A DNA stretch of 64,000 nt from positions 4,384,001-4,448,000 of the forward strand of contig CM000151.3 of assembly GCA_000004695.1 (NCBI GenBank). The letters are read 5' to 3'. Positions 3,839 through 64,000 of the stretch are shown one piece after another (position 1 is the stretch's first letter; the number at the start of each line of letters is the position of its first letter). Under the pieces are notes generated by a model, which was not told where the DNA came from, did no database searches, and saw only the letters and a list, made by a program, of their open reading frames with translations. A program made the translations under genes and the position numbers. The DNA is from Dictyostelium discoideum. Lineage: Eukaryota.

Positions 3839-5865
3839 TTAAATTTGTTTTTTATCATAACAAACATGATCCCATAATGAGAAATGGTTCTTTGGACCAA
3901 CAGTACCATCAAGATTTTGGAATTCATGTACAAAGTAAACAGAGAATTTATATAATTGTTCATCACCAGTATGTCTTTTATTGAATTCTCTACAGAGATA
4001 TCTACCATGTTCTAATCTCATAGAATCACTATTTGCTTGATTATAACCATTTTCATAATATTTAAACCATCTATGATTACCATAAGACTTGTAGAATGGA
4101 TTTGGTTTTTCAAAGTTTACTTCAGTATTAATTTGAAAATTAAACATACCTTCATTTTTAAATAATTCAACTTTAGTACCATCATCTAATTCACCATGAA
4201 TAACATGCCACCAATGTGTTTTTGGTGGTGCTGGACTAAACATATTCCAACTTTGATCTATTATTAAATAAATTTAAATAAAATTAATAAATAAAATAAA
4301 ATAAAATAAAATAAAATAAATAAAATAATGAATAAAATTAAATTAAATAATTACCTAATCTTAAAACATAAGCAAATTGATGCCAACTTTGTTGGAAACC
4401 AAAATTATAATCAAAAACATTCAAATTATAAGCAAATAAGAAATAACAAATGAATAACATCCAAATGTTATTTAAAATTGAATAAATACGTGGAGTTTGT
4501 GGAATTGGATTCTTTTTCTTTTGATATAAACTTCTTTTACCACTAGACATAATTAATGATTGTTGTGAACGACTATGAATCTTTTGACAAATCTTTGTAA
4601 ATAACATACACATATTTGCAGGTACATATGTCAATGCCTTTGCCAATGGGAATAGTAAAGGTGATTTACTACAAATGTAATTTAAAGCATGGATATTTCT
4701 TTTTCTAATTCCATTTGAATCAATTGTAACTAACCAATCATCACCAACTAAATCTTTTTTACTACCATTAATTAATGGGGAAGAAGAAAACATTGTTGAT
4801 GAAATTGTTGGTGATGATAAATTTGAAGTACGACGACGATGTGATCTTTCAGCGTCATCAGTATCTGAACCAGAGTTATCATTTGATGATGATGATGATG
4901 AACTACTGCTGCTTAATAAATATGGTGATTGAGTAGCACTATTATTGCTAATTGAATCTTCATTATTTAACATTTTTTCTAATGGTGAAAAAATAGCATG
5001 ACCTGGAATTATGAAATAAGTTTTAAAGATTAAAGCAATTCTTTGACTAATTGGACTTGAAGTATTATAATAAACACGAGTTGGTTGTTGACCTTTTAAT
5101 ACTTTCTCCTCTATCAAATCAAAGAATAATTCCCAAACTGTTGTTGGAATATTAATTAATTCTGCACCTGCTGTAACGAAAAAGAATAAACCTAAACGTA
5201 AACACATAATAAAACCAGCATGCATAGCAATAAATCCAATTGCACCAAATAATCTACACCAATCTGAATAAACTGGTGAAATTAAAAATAAAATACCAAA
5301 TAATTCCCATTTTGCAACTGCAATTGTTAAAACTCTATAATAATAATAATAATAATAAAAAAAGTTAATATGTTATTATTTTTATTATTGTTGTTATTGT
5401 TGTTAATTTATAATAAATTAAAATATTTACTTTAATGCTGGAGGGAAATATAAAAATAATTTAGCGATATCAGTAGCGAAATAATCTAAAGTTAAAGCAT
5501 AGAAAGTTGCATCACCATTATGCCATTCTGCACCAGATTTATGAAAATATGAAGTACAATACATTAAACCAATTTGTAAGATAATTGCACAAGTACCGAA
5601 TGAAACGAAACGATAACTATCTGGATCTCTTTTTGCTTGGATAACTTTTTGTTCAATACCACGTTCACTACCAATCTCAATACCAATTTCATCTTTATTA
5701 ATATTAATATCTTTTAATTGTTGTTGTTGTGGTGGTTGTAAAATTAATTCTTGGTCATGTTGTAATTGTTGTTGTAATAGTTGTTGTTGTTGTAATGGTG
5801 ATTCTGGTTCTGATAAATTAATTATTGGTATATTCGTACTATTTATTACATTATTTATTATTACA

Positions 5866-5896
<31 letters not shown>

Positions 5897-6473
5897 TTAC
5901 AATATTATTATTATTATTATTATTTAAACGTTTTATTGGTGAATCTTGATAAAATGTTGCACTATCCCAAGAGAAATATTTTGAAGTTGGTATGAAAATA
6001 TTTAAAAATAACATCATACGAAAGAAAACATCACCACCATGACCAATGACACCAATGTAGGCTTGCAATGAAATTGTCATTAACCAAGTTAGAATAGAGC
6101 TTAGTTTTGTACGATAACCAATTAACATTGAAAATGCAATTACAATATGTAATGTGAATAGAAATGCTTGGAAACAAAATGATGTATTAACTAAATGAAT
6201 TGGTAAAAAGTAATTACTACTATAACGTGATGTAATTAAATGACGAGGCATAACACCACTATCTGTATACATTACACTTAAATCCGTTGCACGTTCAATA
6301 ACATCACCAATTACACATAATGCCATCGTAACTCTAAACAATGCCATTGATCTATAATCCATACCAAACATCATCAATGTTTTATGTTGAACCTTTTTCC
6401 ATGTCTCTTTTGATATAAAATTATGAAATGATTCTGTAAAACTTTGTGGTCTTTTTAATTTTAATTTACCCAT
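3839..6473 (-). CDS. HTTM-domain polytopic membrane protein (vitamin K-dependent gamma-carboxylase / lipase-maturation-factor-like). Three exons: 5431..6473, 4355..5334, 3839..4257.
   Basis: The N-terminal part matches the HTTM domain pattern (FGMDYRSMALFRVTMALCVIGDVIERATDLS..., PVYSDWCRLFGAIGFIAMHAGFIM...). Two GTAAAT/GTAATT donors and TTATAG/AATAG acceptors join three ORFs in phase (...PPALK|VLTIAVAKWELFG..., ...RL|DQSWNMFSPAPP...). There is a poly-Asn/Gln insert and a C-terminal soluble region (HWWHVIHGELDDG...). Confidence 0.6.
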
Positions 6474-7449: not shown

Positions 7450-8827
<1,378 letters not shown>

Positions 8828-27950: not shown

Positions 27951-28526
27951 ATGGAACATGGAAATTCATTGTGGGGATTAAGAGATTGTGTACCAATGTT
28001 AAAAGGTATTGCATTAATTGGTGGATCAATGTTTGCAGGTATTAGTATTTATATTCAAACTGTCGAACATCCAGCTCGTTCAACATTACCAACTGAATTT
28101 GCAGTTAATGAATGGCGTGAAAGTTTTAAAAAGGCCGCTCCATTACAATCTTCTCTTGCTGCAGTTTCTGGTATCGCTTCGTTGCTTACTTTTGGCTCCA
28201 TTGCAAAGGCATCCTGCAAGACAATCAACAAAGTAATCGTCAAAGCCACAGAAGATTCAGTTCGTCATTGTTGCCAATGTAATGGTTTAGGTTGGTTGCT
28301 AAGTGGTGGTTTAATGCTTTCCATTATTCCATTCACTTTATTAGCCATTATGCCAGTTAATAAGAAATTACAATCCAAAGAACTTGATACCTTTGCTGAT
28401 GATACTCGTCAATTATTAGCTCAATGGGGTGAATTACATTCAGTTCGTTCAGTTCTTTCACTCTCTGCGGTTGCAATTATGGGTTACAAAATCTTTAGAC
28501 ACTCCCATTTGTTAATTAAATCTTAA
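27951..28526 (+). CDS. DUF1772-like small membrane protein (four predicted TM helices) with GC content well above the local background.
   Basis: 191-aa ORF with hydrophobic helices. The C-terminal block LLAQWGELHSVRSVLSLSAVAIMG matches the DUF1772 consensus (W..LH.VR..L...A), as does PVNKKLQS (compare P[VI]NN). The coding sequence uses many G/C-ending codons (gcc gct, tcg ttg, ggc tcc, tgc aag), unlike its neighbours. Confidence 0.6.
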   Translation: MEHGNSLWGLRDCVPMLKGIALIGGSMFAGISIYIQTVEHPARSTLPTEFAVNEWRESFKKAAPLQSSLAAVSGIASLLTFGSIAKASCKTINKVIVKATEDSVRHCCQCNGLGWLLSGGLMLSIIPFTLLAIMPVNKKLQSKELDTFADDTRQLLAQWGELHSVRSVLSLSAVAIMGYKIFRHSHLLIKS

Positions 28527-34530: not shown

Positions 34531-35673
<1,143 letters not shown>

Positions 35674-48127: not shown

Positions 48128-50435
48128 ATGGAATTACAAACTATTCCAAATAATATTAGCCTTGCTAATGGAGATAGTAAAGGTGTTCAACTAACATTTA
48201 AAAATATTGTTTATAAGGTTGATAATAAAAAGTATAAAAAATTAGTTAAAAAACAAGAAAAAGCTAAAAAAAAGAATGACACTGAAAGTTCCACTGGTGA
48301 TATGAATACTGGTGTATCAACAACAATCGAAAAAGAATTAACAATTTTAAATAATGTTAGTGGTGTTATTGAAAAAGGTGAATTAGGTATGTAAATAATT
48401 TTTTTTATCTTCAAAAATTATATTGGTTGTTTTTATCATTTTTTTTTTTTATCTCTGTCCTTTTTTTTTTCTAAACATTTTTTTTTATTTTTTTTTATTT
48501 TCATTTTTAGTTGCATTGATGGGACCATCAGGTTCAGGTAAATCAACTTTATTGGATATTTTAGCACAACGTAAATCAACTGGTAAAATAACTGGTCAAT
48601 TATTAGTTAATGGTAAAGAAATTGGTGAAGCTTACAAAAAGGTAATTTTCAATTTTTTTTTTTTTTTTATTATTTTTTTTTTTTTTGTCTGCTTTAATTA
48701 TTAATTGTTGAATAAAAAAATTTTATTTTTTAATTTAGTATTGTAGTTATGTTACACAAGAAGATGTTTTATTACAAACTTCAACTGTATTTGAAACATT
48801 AAAATTTTATGCTGATTTAAAACTTCCAGGTGTTTCTGAAATTGAAAAAATTAAAAGAGTTGAACAAATTATTGAAGATATTGGTTTAACAAAGAGAACT
48901 CATTCAAAGATTGGTGGTGTTTTACCAGGTGGTATTTTAATGAAAGGTTTATCAGGTGGTGAAAAACGTAGAGTATGTAATTAGTTATTATTTAAATAAA
49001 ATTTAAAAGTTTTAAATTATTAATAATATATATATATTTTTAAAAATATTAAAAGGTTAGTATTGGTTGTGGTTTAGTTACAAATCCAAGTTTAATATTT
49101 TTAGATGAACCAACAAGTGGTTTAGATTCAGTTGCAGCATTACAAATTATGAAAACATTATTAAATTTAACATTAAAAGGTGTTACAGTAATTTGTAGTA
49201 TCCATCAACCACGTCCTGAAATTTTTGCATTATTTAATAAAGTAATGGTAATTATTAAAGGTAAAATGATTTATAGTGGTAGTAATATTTTGGAATATTT
49301 TGAATCATTAGGTTATCCATGTCCAAATAATACAAATCCAGCAGATTTTTGTTTAGATTCAGCAGTTGAAATTGGTGAAGGTGAACGTTATACTGAAATT
49401 TGTAATCAATGGCAAAAGATTTGGGAGAATGAATTATTGAATGAGATTGAATATCCACCAGTGAATGTAGAGAAACCAAAAACTGCATCATGGGGATACC
49501 AATATTGGATTCTATTAGGTAGAACATGGAAAGATTTCCTACGTAACCAAGGTAATTTCGTAGCAAGAGTTGGTACCGCAGTGGTTACTGGTTTATTATT
49601 TGGTGTTTGTTTTGCAGGTTTAAAAGAGACTGAAGCTGATGTTCAAAAGATTTTAGGTACAATTTTCTTTTTAATTACTGGTTTAAATTTAACACCTTTC
49701 GCAGTGATTTCATTATTCCTTTCTGGTAGAACTCTTTTCAACGCCGAGAGAGCTTCTAAAATTTACCATTCTTTCCCATACTATATGGCGATGGTAACTG
49801 TGGAAACTTTAATTGTATTTTTGGTCGCATTGATTAATGCAGCAATTTGTTATTTATTCGCTCATTTACGTTGGACTGCTGGTCACTTTTTCTTTGCAAT
49901 TATGGTTTATTTCTTTGTTCATTTACTCTCTGATTTTATGATTTCAACAATTGCTAATTTAACTGGTACTAGTGATATGACTTTTGCTTATGGAAGTATG
50001 TATTGAATTTAATCATCTCTAAAAATAATATTTAAATTTTATTTACCTTTGGTACTAACTTTTTATTAAATTTTAAAAATAGGTGGGCTTTCTGTAATTT
50101 ATATGTTATTTGCAGGTTTTTACGTGCCAACAAATGAATTACCAAAATCATTTGGTTGGTTACATTGGGTTAATCCACTTTTTTATTCATTTGTTTCTCT
50201 TGTTGTAAATCAATTTGAAGATTTACCTTTAGAATGTACAAGACCAAATATCCCGGTTGGAAATTCTACTATTCAAATACCATGTCAATTTAGTAATGGA
50301 AATCAAGTTATTGAATATTATGGTATAGATGATTGGACAAGAGGTAGTTCATTTGGTGTTGTTGTTGCATGGACTGTTTTCTTTTTCTGGACTTCATACC
50401 TTGCATTACACTTTTTAAACAAAGAAAAGAGATAA
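48128..50435 (+). CDS. abcG: ABC transporter G-family half-transporter (NBD-TMD, White-like). Five exons: 48128..48386, 48511..48641, 48739..48972, 49056..49995, 50083..50435.
   Basis: Walker A ([17 protein letters not shown]), ABC signature [12 protein letters not shown], Walker B ([12 protein letters not shown]), an H-loop (CSIHQPR), then an ABC2-type six-helix TMD. GTATGT/GTAATT donors and AG acceptors all join in phase. Exon joins verified: ELG|VALMG, AYKK|YCSYV, EKRR|VSIGCG, AYGS|GLSVIYM. Confidence 0.85.
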
Positions 50436-51256: not shown

Positions 51257-53528
51257 ATGGAGTTGGAAACAATAGAATATAATAAAAGTTTTAATATTTG
51301 CGAAAATGGAGATAGTAAAGGTGTTCAACTTACATTTAAAAATATATCTTATAAGGTAGAAAATAAAAATTATAATAAAAATAAAAAAGAAAAAAATAAA
51401 AATAAAATTGATCCAGAATTTGTTAACCTAGATAATAAAACAGAGAATTCAAATGAAAAAGAAATTACTATTCTATATAATGTTGGTGGTGTTATTGAAA
51501 AAGGAGAATTAGGTAAGTAAATAATTAATTGATTTTTTTTTCTTTTGAAAATGATTTTTATATCTATCCTTTTTTTTTTTTTTTTTTTTTTTTTTATTTT
51601 TATAAACTTTTTTTTTTTTTTTCTAAACTTTTTTTTTTATTTTTTTTTTTTTATTTTTATTTTTAGTTGCATTGATGGGACCATCAGGTTCAGGTAAATC
51701 AACTTTATTGGATATTTTAGCACAACGTAAATCAACTGGTAAAATAACTGGTCAATTATTAGTTAATGGTAAAGAAATTGGTGAAGCTTACAAAAAGGTG
51801 ATTTTTTTTTTTTTTTTTTTCGTCTATTTAAAATTAATTACTAATTGTCGATTAAAAATTTTTATTTTTTAATTTAGTATTGTAGTTATGTTACACAAGA
51901 AGATGTTTTATTACAAACTTACACTGTATTTGAAACATTAAAATTTTATGCTGATTTAAAACTTCCAGGTGTTTCTGAAATTGAAAAAATTAAAAGAGTT
52001 GAAAAAGTAATTGAGGATGTAGGTTTAACATTGAAAAGAGATTCAAGGGTTGGTGGGGTTTTGGCAGGAGGAGTTGCTGTTACTGGTTTATCAGGTGGTG
52101 AAAAACGTAGAGTATGTATTAAACAAATAGTTAATCATTATAAATCATAATTAACAATTTTTTTTATTTTTTTTTAATTAATTTTTTTTAAAAGGTTAGT
52201 ATTGGTTGTGGTTTAATTACAAATCCAAGTTTAATATTTTTAGATGAACCAACAAGTGGTTTAGATTCAGTTGCAGCATTACAAATTATGAAAACATTAT
52301 TAAATTTAACATTAAAAGGTGTTACAGTAATTTGTAGTATCCATCAACCACGTCCTGAAATTTTTCAATTAATTAATAAAGTAATGGTAATTATTAAAGG
52401 TAAAATGATATATAGTGGTAGTAATATTTTGGAATATTTTGAATCATTAGGTTACCCATGTCCAAATAATACAAATCCAGCAGATTTTTGTTTAGATTCA
52501 GCAGTTGAAATTGGTGAAGGTGAACGTTATACTGAAATTTGTAATCAATGGGAAAATAAATGGGAGAATCAACTAACTAATGAAATTGAATATCCATCTT
52601 TGAATGTTGATATTCCAAAAACAACTTCATGGGTATACCAATATTGGATTCTCCTAAATAGAGAATGGAGAGGATTTATTAGAAATAAAGGAAATGCATT
52701 ATCAAGAGTAATCACAGGTATGTACATTTATATTAATTTTTATTTTAATAAAATCCAATAATAAAATTATTAATATTAAATTGAAATATAGCAATTGTTA
52801 TTGGAGCACTTTTTGGATCGTGTTTTGCAGGTCTTAAAGAATCAGATGCAGATGTTCAAAAAATTATGGGTACACTTTTCTTTTTAACCACTGGTTTAAT
52901 GTTATCACCATTTTCAATGATTACTCTTTTCCTTTCAGGTAGACAATTGTTCAATTCAGAGAGAGCTTCAAAAATATATCATTCTTTTCCTTATTTTTTA
53001 TCAATGATTACTGTTGAACTAACGATTGAATTCTTTGTAACATTGGTAGAAGTAACAGTTTGTTATATGTTGGCTCGTTTGAGGATGGATGCCGGTAGAT
53101 TTTTCTTTGCTGTTTTAGTATACAGTTTTATTCACTCACTTTCAACCTTTTTTATTAGTTCATTAGCTAATTTGACTGGTACAAGTGATTTAACATTCTC
53201 ATATGCTTCTTCATTAAGTGTTGTTTTCATGCTATTTGCAGGTTTTTATGTTCCTACAAATGAATTACCAAGAGCATTTGGATGGCTTCATTGGGTCAAC
53301 CCAGCATTTTATGGTTATTCTTCAGTTGTAATAAATCAATTTGAAGATTTACAATTAAAGTGTACAGATGAACCATGCAAGTTTACCAATGGAAATCAAG
53401 TTATTGAATATTATGGAATTGAAGATTGGACAAGAGGTGGATCATTTGGAGTTTTGGTAGCTTGGGCAACATTTTTTTATTCATTAAGTTATTTTGCATT
53501 GCACTTTTTACACAGAGAAAAAAGATGA
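51257..53528 (+). CDS. abcG: ABC transporter G-family half-transporter, a tandem paralog of 48128..50435. Five exons: 51257..51512, 51667..51797, 51878..52111, 52195..52717, 52792..53528.
   Basis: Same motif set as the upstream paralog. Exons 2-4 are (near-)identical to it at nucleotide level. The last intron sits at a different position (RVITG|AIVIG), and this gene lacks the paralog's intron at AYGS|GLSV. Confidence 0.85.

Positions 53529-58898: not shown

Positions 58899-64000
<5,102 letters not shown>

Follow-up and report, generated by a model that had tools for sequence, protein, structure and literature searches.

The stretch analysed here, called the window, comprises 64,000 nucleotides of Dictyostelium discoideum DNA (GenBank assembly GCA_000004695.1, contig CM000151.3, positions 4,384,001 to 4,448,000), an extremely AT-rich sequence of the Dictyostelium type with 23.2% GC overall. 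At 27951-28526 on the forward strand lies an uninterrupted open reading frame (ORF) of 191 codons, running from ATG to TAA without an intron, which is a real and functional dictyostelid gene for a small integral-membrane protein of the DUF1772 family. A first reading of the letters alone (the sequence-only reading) had proposed it as a horizontally acquired gene of foreign composition. Our analysis indicates that its composition is native and that it was probably acquired from bacteria, but long ago.

The Pfam profile PF08592 (Anthrone_oxy, formerly DUF1772) matches residues 55-175 of the protein over profile positions 1-105 of 106, scoring 57.9 bits where the gathering cut-off is 27.3 (E=1.3e-15), which confirms the family assignment of the sequence-only reading; no NCBIfam model matches the protein. 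The AlphaFold2 model, built on a 17-sequence alignment, has a mean predicted local distance difference test score (pLDDT) of 81.8 and a predicted template modelling score (pTM) of 0.76, and shows four long helices at residues 6-44, 48-95, 103-141 and 150-183. Hydropathy places four hydrophobic cores at about residues 16-38, 63-85, 113-134 and 164-182, so that model and hydropathy agree with the description of the family as small integral membrane proteins with four transmembrane helices. The intronless four-helix ORF that had been read from the letters was thus recovered by the ORF scan, the model and the hydropathy profile. The C-terminal block expected for the family, W..LH.VR..L...A, is also present, as W159..L162 H163.V165 R166..L169...A173; W159, L162, H163, V165 and R166, together with P135 and N137, are invariant or nearly so in alignments of 17 and 15 homologues. 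Directly before W159 stands Q154-L-L-A-Q158, and the dictyostelid protein ends in a His-rich tail. The features of the gene are collected in Table 1.

Table 1. Features of the DUF1772 gene, in positions of the window.
Feature	Position	Strand	Evidence
Complete intronless coding sequence (191 amino acids + TAA), DUF1772/Anthrone_oxy four-helix membrane protein	27951..28526	+	ORF, PF08592, AlphaFold2, dN/dS
Hydrophobic helix 1 (about residues 16-38)	27996..28064	+	hydropathy, model helix
Conserved V-E-H-P-A-R motif (residues 38-43) at the end of helix 1; H40 and P41 nearly invariant	28062..28079	+	alignments
Hydrophobic helix 2 (about residues 63-85) with invariant Q66	28137..28205	+	hydropathy, alignment
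Dictyostelid-specific 26-residue insertion (residues 86-111) between helices 2 and 3	28206..28283	+	alignment gap; pLDDT <50 at 96-106
[RK]-H-x-C-x-C-x-G motif (R105 H106 C107 C108 Q109 C110 N111 G112), inside and just past the insertion	28263..28286	+	alignment
Hydrophobic helix 3 (about residues 113-134) with invariant W115, P127 and T129, followed by P135-x-N137	28287..28352	+	hydropathy, alignments
C-terminal block W159-G-E-L-H163-S-V-R166-S-V-L-S-L-S-A173, leading into helix 4 (about residues 164-182)	28425..28469	+	sequence, alignment

The ORF has 36.8% GC and is flanked by long A/T tracts with 11-12% GC, and synonymous G-ending codons make up 5.2% of its codons versus 0.5% in actin. Both features would speak for a recent horizontal acquisition in which the composition of the donor was retained, and they had been taken for a foreign look. 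However, every coding region in this genome stands out from the intergenic DNA in GC content. Among the 31 window ORFs of at least 120 codons, whose GC content at third codon positions (GC3) ranges from 0.058 to 0.338, the DUF1772 ORF ranks third (0.225); actin (34543-35673) reaches 0.338, and the adjacent Peptidase_S28 and choline-transporter-like genes 0.236 and 0.216. Most of the excess GC is found at the first and second codon positions (0.445 and 0.435), because the product is a membrane protein rich in Ala, Gly, Leu and Ser and free of Asn/Lys low-complexity tracts. In a leave-one-out comparison with the pooled synonymous usage the ORF scored z=-2.46, sixth of the 31, and five ORFs deviate more strongly: actin (-6.5), Peptidase_S28 (-5.7), an FG-nucleoporin, the choline-transporter-like gene and a helicase. 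That the gene uses G-ending codons which actin avoids is literally true, but this is not unusual, since the share is as high or higher in six other ORFs (0.055-0.088) and three more stand at 0.050-0.051. Native D. discoideum coding sequences range from 29.2 to 42.5% GC (PMC10733785), and the genes of the bacterial relatives described below have a mean GC of 58% and a GC3 of 0.66. Checked against the other window ORFs, GC3 and codon usage therefore came out native: no compositional signature of a donor is left, and the apparent GC shift is the normal contrast between coding and intergenic DNA of this genome. A compositional signal of transfer was rejected on GC3, synonymous G- and C-ending codons and the leave-one-out codon likelihood over the 31 ORFs, and the lack of an intron, read before as a hint of transfer, carries no information.

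Word-indexed searches of 5.8 billion protein clusters recovered orthologues in other Dictyostelium species. The assembly index has no entry identical to the window protein; the best cluster, 'Dictyostelium cf. discoideum', shares 94% identity with it and is followed by two D. citrinum copies (86% and 74%), D. firmibasis (81%) and D. purpureum (59%). With a profile of the dictyostelid proteins, three further copies were recovered: two in D. purpureum and one, 47% identical, in the group-3 species Tieghemostelium lacteum. Within Amoebozoa, the matches are limited to group-4 Dictyostelium species and to T. lacteum, all of them Dictyosteliales, and all dictyostelid copies are intronless.

Analysis of the neighbourhoods showed that D. 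firmibasis has the gene order of the window, namely choline-transporter-like, Peptidase_S28 (reverse strand), DUF1772 (forward strand), long TPR-like, small ORF (reverse strand) and actin. At the D. purpureum locus the Peptidase_S28, actin, choline transporter and DNA ligase neighbours are kept, with some rearrangement, and the T. lacteum copy sits amid ordinary eukaryotic genes (UQ_con, Arf, dynein light chain and SIR2). Immediately upstream of its orthologue, D. purpureum carries a tandem paralogue of 164 amino acids (L081:6279-6773) which has neither the E-H-P motif, the L-H-x-V-R block nor the Cys insertion, and which is degenerating or gaining a new function; in the window no paralogue lies between Peptidase_S28 and the DUF1772 gene. 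Full-length paralogues were also observed at unlinked loci in D. citrinum (L083:8001-8582, near pyruvate kinase) and in D. purpureum (L085:6001-6582, near acyl-CoA dehydrogenase). No D. discoideum counterpart of these unlinked copies was retrieved, and D. discoideum seems to carry the gene only once, which indicates that copy number varies among the group-4 species.

In the comparison with D. firmibasis the gene has a ratio of nonsynonymous to synonymous substitutions (dN/dS) of 0.18; the value rises to 0.30 for D. purpureum and to about 0.4 for T. lacteum, for which dS approaches saturation. The gene is thus under purifying selection. All non-degenerate dictyostelid copies, including that of T. 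lacteum, share an N-terminal extension with Cys and the insertion between helices 2 and 3 with its terminal [RK]-H-x-C-x-C-x-G motif, which reads KHSCNCDG in T. lacteum. In our alignment the insertion is found in no bacterial, nematode or rotifer homologue. The shared insertion and its H-x-C-x-C motif point to a single origin of the dictyostelid genes, whose vertical inheritance goes back to the common ancestor of groups 3 and 4 or further. A side observation concerns codon 8 of the window gene (27972-27974), which encodes Trp (TGG) where all other group-4 orthologues have Cys, a one-base difference; residue 8 belongs to an otherwise conserved N-terminal C-x-x-x-x-C pair.

Two explanations can be judged on these data. 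A recent transfer is hard to reconcile with the T. lacteum homologue and with orthologues that keep their synteny in D. firmibasis and D. purpureum; it is refuted by the native codon usage and by the orthologues of other dictyostelid genera, and we give it very little credence. Bacterial contamination or an assembly artefact would draw on the bacterial affinity of the protein and nothing else. The codons are native and AT-rich, the flanks are poly-A/T intergenic DNA of the Dictyostelium type, independently assembled genomes of other species show the locus in synteny, and the insertion is specific to the lineage. Contamination is refuted by these observations and its probability is negligible; the gene is an integrated part of the chromosome.

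To describe the relatives outside the dictyostelids, we used an exhaustive phmmer search, without a word index, of 1.84 billion cluster representatives. It returned 1204 matches at E<=1e-3 and 225 at E<=1e-10, and a single one, the Dictyostelium cluster itself, at E<=1e-30; the next-best match had 107 bits and 44% identity. The matches at E<=1e-10 are about 145 amino acids long, about 35-44% identical and colinear over the full length. Nearly all of the non-dictyostelid ones align as two stretches, because they do not contain a segment which is present in the dictyostelid proteins. In the word-indexed list, the entries below the dictyostelids are bacterial and metagenome proteins of 145-150 amino acids with 33-40% identity, the named ones being Terriglobales, and no fungal protein occurs among the named matches of the word-indexed searches. 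A scan of GTDB, with one genome per species, revealed relatives in at least 223 bacterial species (31-42% identity), among them members of Acidobacteriota, Desulfobacterota, Nitrospirota, Binatia, Methylomirabilota, Gemmatimonadota, Verrucomicrobiota and the Gamma-, Beta- and Alphaproteobacteria.

The proteins of soil Acidobacteriota (Terriglobales, Bryobacteraceae), Desulfobacterota, Nitrospirota, Binatia and Gammaproteobacteria thus resemble the dictyostelid protein in their four helices, in 35-44% identity and in full-length colinearity. H40/P41, Q66, W115, P127, T129, P135, N137, W159, H163 and R166 are invariant in bacterial and dictyostelid proteins alike. Apart from its eukaryotic members, the subfamily is mostly bacterial and widespread in soil taxa. 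Compared with the bacterial proteins of about 145-150 amino acids, the dictyostelid one adds a Cys-bearing N-terminus of about 15 residues, the 26-residue H-x-C-x-C insertion and the His-rich C-terminal tail, and the gene GC differs (37% versus about 58%). The closest relatives outside the dictyostelids are therefore soil-bacterial, according to phmmer, the GTDB scan and the cluster names, and no fungus and no other amoebozoan is found among the named matches; this part of the sequence-only reading was supported. A mobile-element or viral vector was also considered and none was found. The plasmid search gave seven weak matches, on large non-mobilizable plasmids or chromids, and the subfamily was not found in phage genomes, IMG/VR contigs or predicted viral structures.

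The same subfamily is carried by tylenchid plant-parasitic nematodes, namely Meloidogyne enterolobii, M. incognita and M. javanica (95 bits), as well as Globodera pallida and Heterodera schachtii. A gene annotated 'Domain DUF1772' is among the bacterial candidates for horizontal gene transfer (HGT) of the M. graminicola genome paper, with an Alien Index >26 (PMC7593179). The nematode proteins are 34-38% identical to the window protein and, as in dictyostelids, have an N-terminal Cys pair before helix 1, but they form a separate clade, do not contain the dictyostelid insertion and were probably acquired independently. The pair is spaced differently: C-R-C or C-G-C just before helix 1 in the nematode homologues P0121 and P0147, and C-x-x-x-x-C in dictyostelids (residues 8-13 of the window protein), while an N-terminal extension of any kind is missing from most bacterial relatives. 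These Cys residues may be a convergent eukaryotic addition, for example as S-acylation sites.

A third eukaryotic group is rotifer-like and consists of Brachionus plicatilis and metagenome proteins whose contigs look eukaryotic (27-29% GC, sparse gene calls, N/Q/H-rich neighbours). The nematode and rotifer members are no closer to the dictyostelids than the bacteria are, and both apparently arose independently of them. We also observed a DUF1772 gene of 50-51% GC (GC3 0.52-0.54) on two eukaryote-like metagenome contigs with few ORFs and a GC of only 27-28% (L087:1280-1735 and L088:6001-6456). Its protein groups with Brachionus, and the gene is an un-ameliorated island of the sort that the sequence-only reading had proposed for the window; it could reflect a recent transfer from a bacterium to a micro-eukaryote. 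Another contig, L086 (13 kb, 29% GC), has two to three tandem copies (2391-2987, 4657-5094 and 6214-6360) adjoining an N/Q/H-rich low-complexity ORF, and its host is an AT-rich eukaryote.

From an alignment of 261 sequences, trimmed to 144 columns, neighbour-joining (NJ) trees were calculated both on amino-acid distances and after Dayhoff-6 recoding, with 200 bootstraps. The dictyostelids are one clade in every best NJ tree, and their split from all 88 named bacteria appears in 94% (amino-acid) and 89% (Dayhoff-6) of the bootstraps. The trees bear on the possibility that the gene is an ancient eukaryotic one, inherited vertically and lost in most lineages, so that dictyostelids, nematodes and rotifers are relicts and the likeness to bacteria reflects slow evolution. 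In its favour, DUF1772 as a whole also occurs in fungi, three eukaryotic groups carry the subfamily, and long branches might explain part of the bacterial likeness. By mean identity, bacteria are nearer to each eukaryotic group than the other eukaryotic groups are, a pattern which long eukaryotic branches alone could yield and which we do not treat as independent evidence. However, all eukaryotes group together in only 1.5% of the bootstraps with either coding, and dictyostelids with nematodes in 4% (amino-acid) and 10% (Dayhoff-6). Vertical descent would also need very many independent losses, in other Amoebozoa, in group 1/2 dictyostelids and in nearly all Metazoa save tylenchid nematodes and rotifers. 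The named matches of the word-indexed searches include no fungus, and the nematode gene was independently scored as non-metazoan in origin. We therefore consider this explanation unlikely.

A transfer between eukaryotes, or an acquisition shared by dictyostelids and the rotifer-like group in which only one of the two received the gene from bacteria, was suggested by our first NJ tree. There the dictyostelids were sister to AT-rich, eukaryote-like metagenome proteins with affinity to Brachionus, which proved to come from rotifer-like eukaryotic DNA. The grouping was lost with a better alignment or with Dayhoff recoding, under which support for dictyostelids plus the rotifer-like group dropped from 50% of the amino-acid bootstraps to 9%, as expected from compositional attraction of AT-rich lineages. 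In addition, the rotifer-like proteins do not have the dictyostelid insertion, and the dictyostelid proteins share on average 33.5% identity with them versus 37% with bacteria. A link of this kind is improbable on these data.

These results point to a single ancient acquisition from bacteria by the ancestor of Dictyosteliales, followed by complete amelioration, and we consider this the probable history of the gene. A soil bacterium would have donated the gene in one horizontal transfer, which predates the split of groups 3 and 4 and is thus ancient, since the gene is present in both. Codon usage would then have been fully adjusted to the AT-rich native pattern, and the N-terminal extension and the 26-residue loop with its H-x-C-x-C motif would have been gained. 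From that point the gene would have descended vertically in a conserved neighbourhood (choline-transporter-like, Peptidase_S28, DUF1772, TPR-like, actin), with occasional duplication. Family membership, fold, distribution, synteny, purifying selection and native composition are demonstrated by the analysis, and we infer the direction of the transfer and the singleness of the event. Of the horizontal origin put forward by the sequence-only reading, the bacterial source is the part best supported by distribution and similarity, whereas the recent, GC-shifted arrival did not survive: GC3 lies in the native range, yet the best homologues outside the dictyostelids are bacterial.

Several results weigh against this history. 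The 50% amino-acid support for a pairing with the rotifer-like group, mentioned above, is one of them. Strict dictyostelid monophyly reaches only 30-58% of the bootstraps, chiefly owing to the unstable position of the degenerate D. purpureum paralogue. The bacterial sister group shifts between alignments, and no particular donor lineage is indicated. The trees were made by NJ only, on 144 columns of a short protein, and without fungal DUF1772 sequences, so that 'closer to bacteria than to fungi' means the absence of fungi from the match lists. Finally, the absence from group 1/2 dictyostelids and from other Amoebozoa refers to annotated proteins, among which no match was found.

For the function, the four-helix model offers a starting point. 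The conserved polar residues (E39-H40-P41, W55, Q66, P135/N137, W159, H163 and R166) lie on one membrane face, at the connections between helices 1-2 and 3-4, and the dictyostelid Cys/His loop and N-terminal Cys lie on the opposite face. With low confidence, and by analogy with fungal enzymes, we suggest a stand-alone, cofactor-independent site of the oxygenase or oxidase type at one membrane face. The face with the conserved residues would bind a hydrophobic aromatic substrate, anthrone- or quinol-like, and promote its cofactor-independent oxidation by O2; the eukaryote-specific Cys/His loop may bind metal, form disulfides or be S-acylated.

To our knowledge, the characterised members of PF08592 are limited to anthrone oxidases of fungi. 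HypC (aflatoxin), GedH, MdpH2, TpcL and EncC (emodin family) speed the O2-dependent conversion of anthrone to anthraquinone, and their genes adjoin a non-reducing polyketide synthase (PKS) (PMC3202775, PMC9890505, PMC6985275). They belong to the same Pfam family as the window protein and are of similar size (about 17 kDa). The motif Q-L-x-x-Q-W, proposed as the catalytic site of HypC (quoted in PMC3202775), has its counterpart in Q154-L-L-A-Q158-W159; most bacterial relatives keep only its L-L-x-x-W part. The fungal enzymes are encoded in polyketide clusters beside the PKS and a metallo-beta-lactamase-type thioesterase and the window gene is not, and their absence from the named matches indicates a more distant sequence relation than that of the bacterial subfamily. 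The window protein was not filed as an anthrone oxidase because of this difference in cluster context.

Other results tell against an oxidase-like role. A Pfam scan of the 20 largest ORFs of the 64-kb window found no PKS, thioesterase or other tailoring or secondary-metabolism gene, and no informative solved structural relative of the protein was found. Among 80 bacterial loci there was no conserved operon partner: the 148 neighbours fall into 110 Pfam families, none in more than four members. The neighbours have a faint redox flavour (Fe/Mn superoxide dismutase, FeThRed_B, zinc alcohol dehydrogenase, luciferase-like monooxygenase, F420H2 quinone reductase), and with no recurrent family the bacterial neighbourhood was rejected as a functional clue. 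A partnership of DUF1772 with DUF692/MNIO was also set aside, as no DUF692 neighbour occurs in the bacterial relatives.

Additionally, the window contains other features of interest. A 458-residue ORF on the reverse strand (7451-8827) has a bacterial-type RecA domain (PF00154, 86.6 bits) and a GC3 of 0.083, and is a second gene of bacterial ancestry with fully native composition; presumably it is the known mitochondrial RecA. Three forward-strand ORFs (49149-50006, 52288-52761 and 52866-53528) encode membrane domains of ABC-2-type (ABCG-like) transporters, stand in tandem and share the same 26-residue start peptide, which looks like local tandem duplication. On the reverse strand, the FG-repeat nucleoporin ORFs at 58899-62574 have a GC of 0.79 at codon position 2 and a GC skew of +0.5 over about 2 kb, and because of the repeats this is the most compositionally odd coding stretch of the window.

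A wider and rather doubtful proposal is that Dictyosteliales, tylenchid nematodes and rotifers each captured the subfamily on their own, at least three times in all, and that purifying selection has maintained it over hundreds of millions of years. If true, such repeated capture by unrelated eukaryotes which have soil and freshwater bacteria around them or as their food would suggest a strongly advantageous, stand-alone function that needs no partner protein, such as the oxidation or detoxification, within the membrane, of aromatic polyketides or quinones made by bacteria. In a later step, the dictyostelids would have added their His/Cys-rich loop as a new metal-binding, redox or lipidation site on the opposite face. 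The recurrence of the subfamily would also make D. discoideum a genetically tractable organism for the role of a very widespread bacterial membrane protein. The compositionally native state of the gene illustrates how little composition reveals about old transfers.

That Dictyostelium has taken up genes by HGT is well established, and in root-knot nematodes DUF1772 had already been named as an HGT candidate; the gene is therefore one more case of a known phenomenon, modest and ordinary. Within the searchable library, no paper was found that links DUF1772 or anthrone oxygenase with Dictyostelium. The screen of the D. discoideum genome paper accepted only Pfam domains specific to bacteria (PMC3383452), and on this account DUF1772 was missed in 2005 because it also occurs in fungi and was excluded by design. 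That paper listed 18 HGT candidates, for example ThyX; if the history proposed here holds, the DUF1772 gene would add one more gene of bacterial origin to the Dictyostelium set. The 18 candidates are bacterial-type genes fixed in Dictyostelium, with host-like GC content and codon usage (PMC10733785), like the gene of the window.

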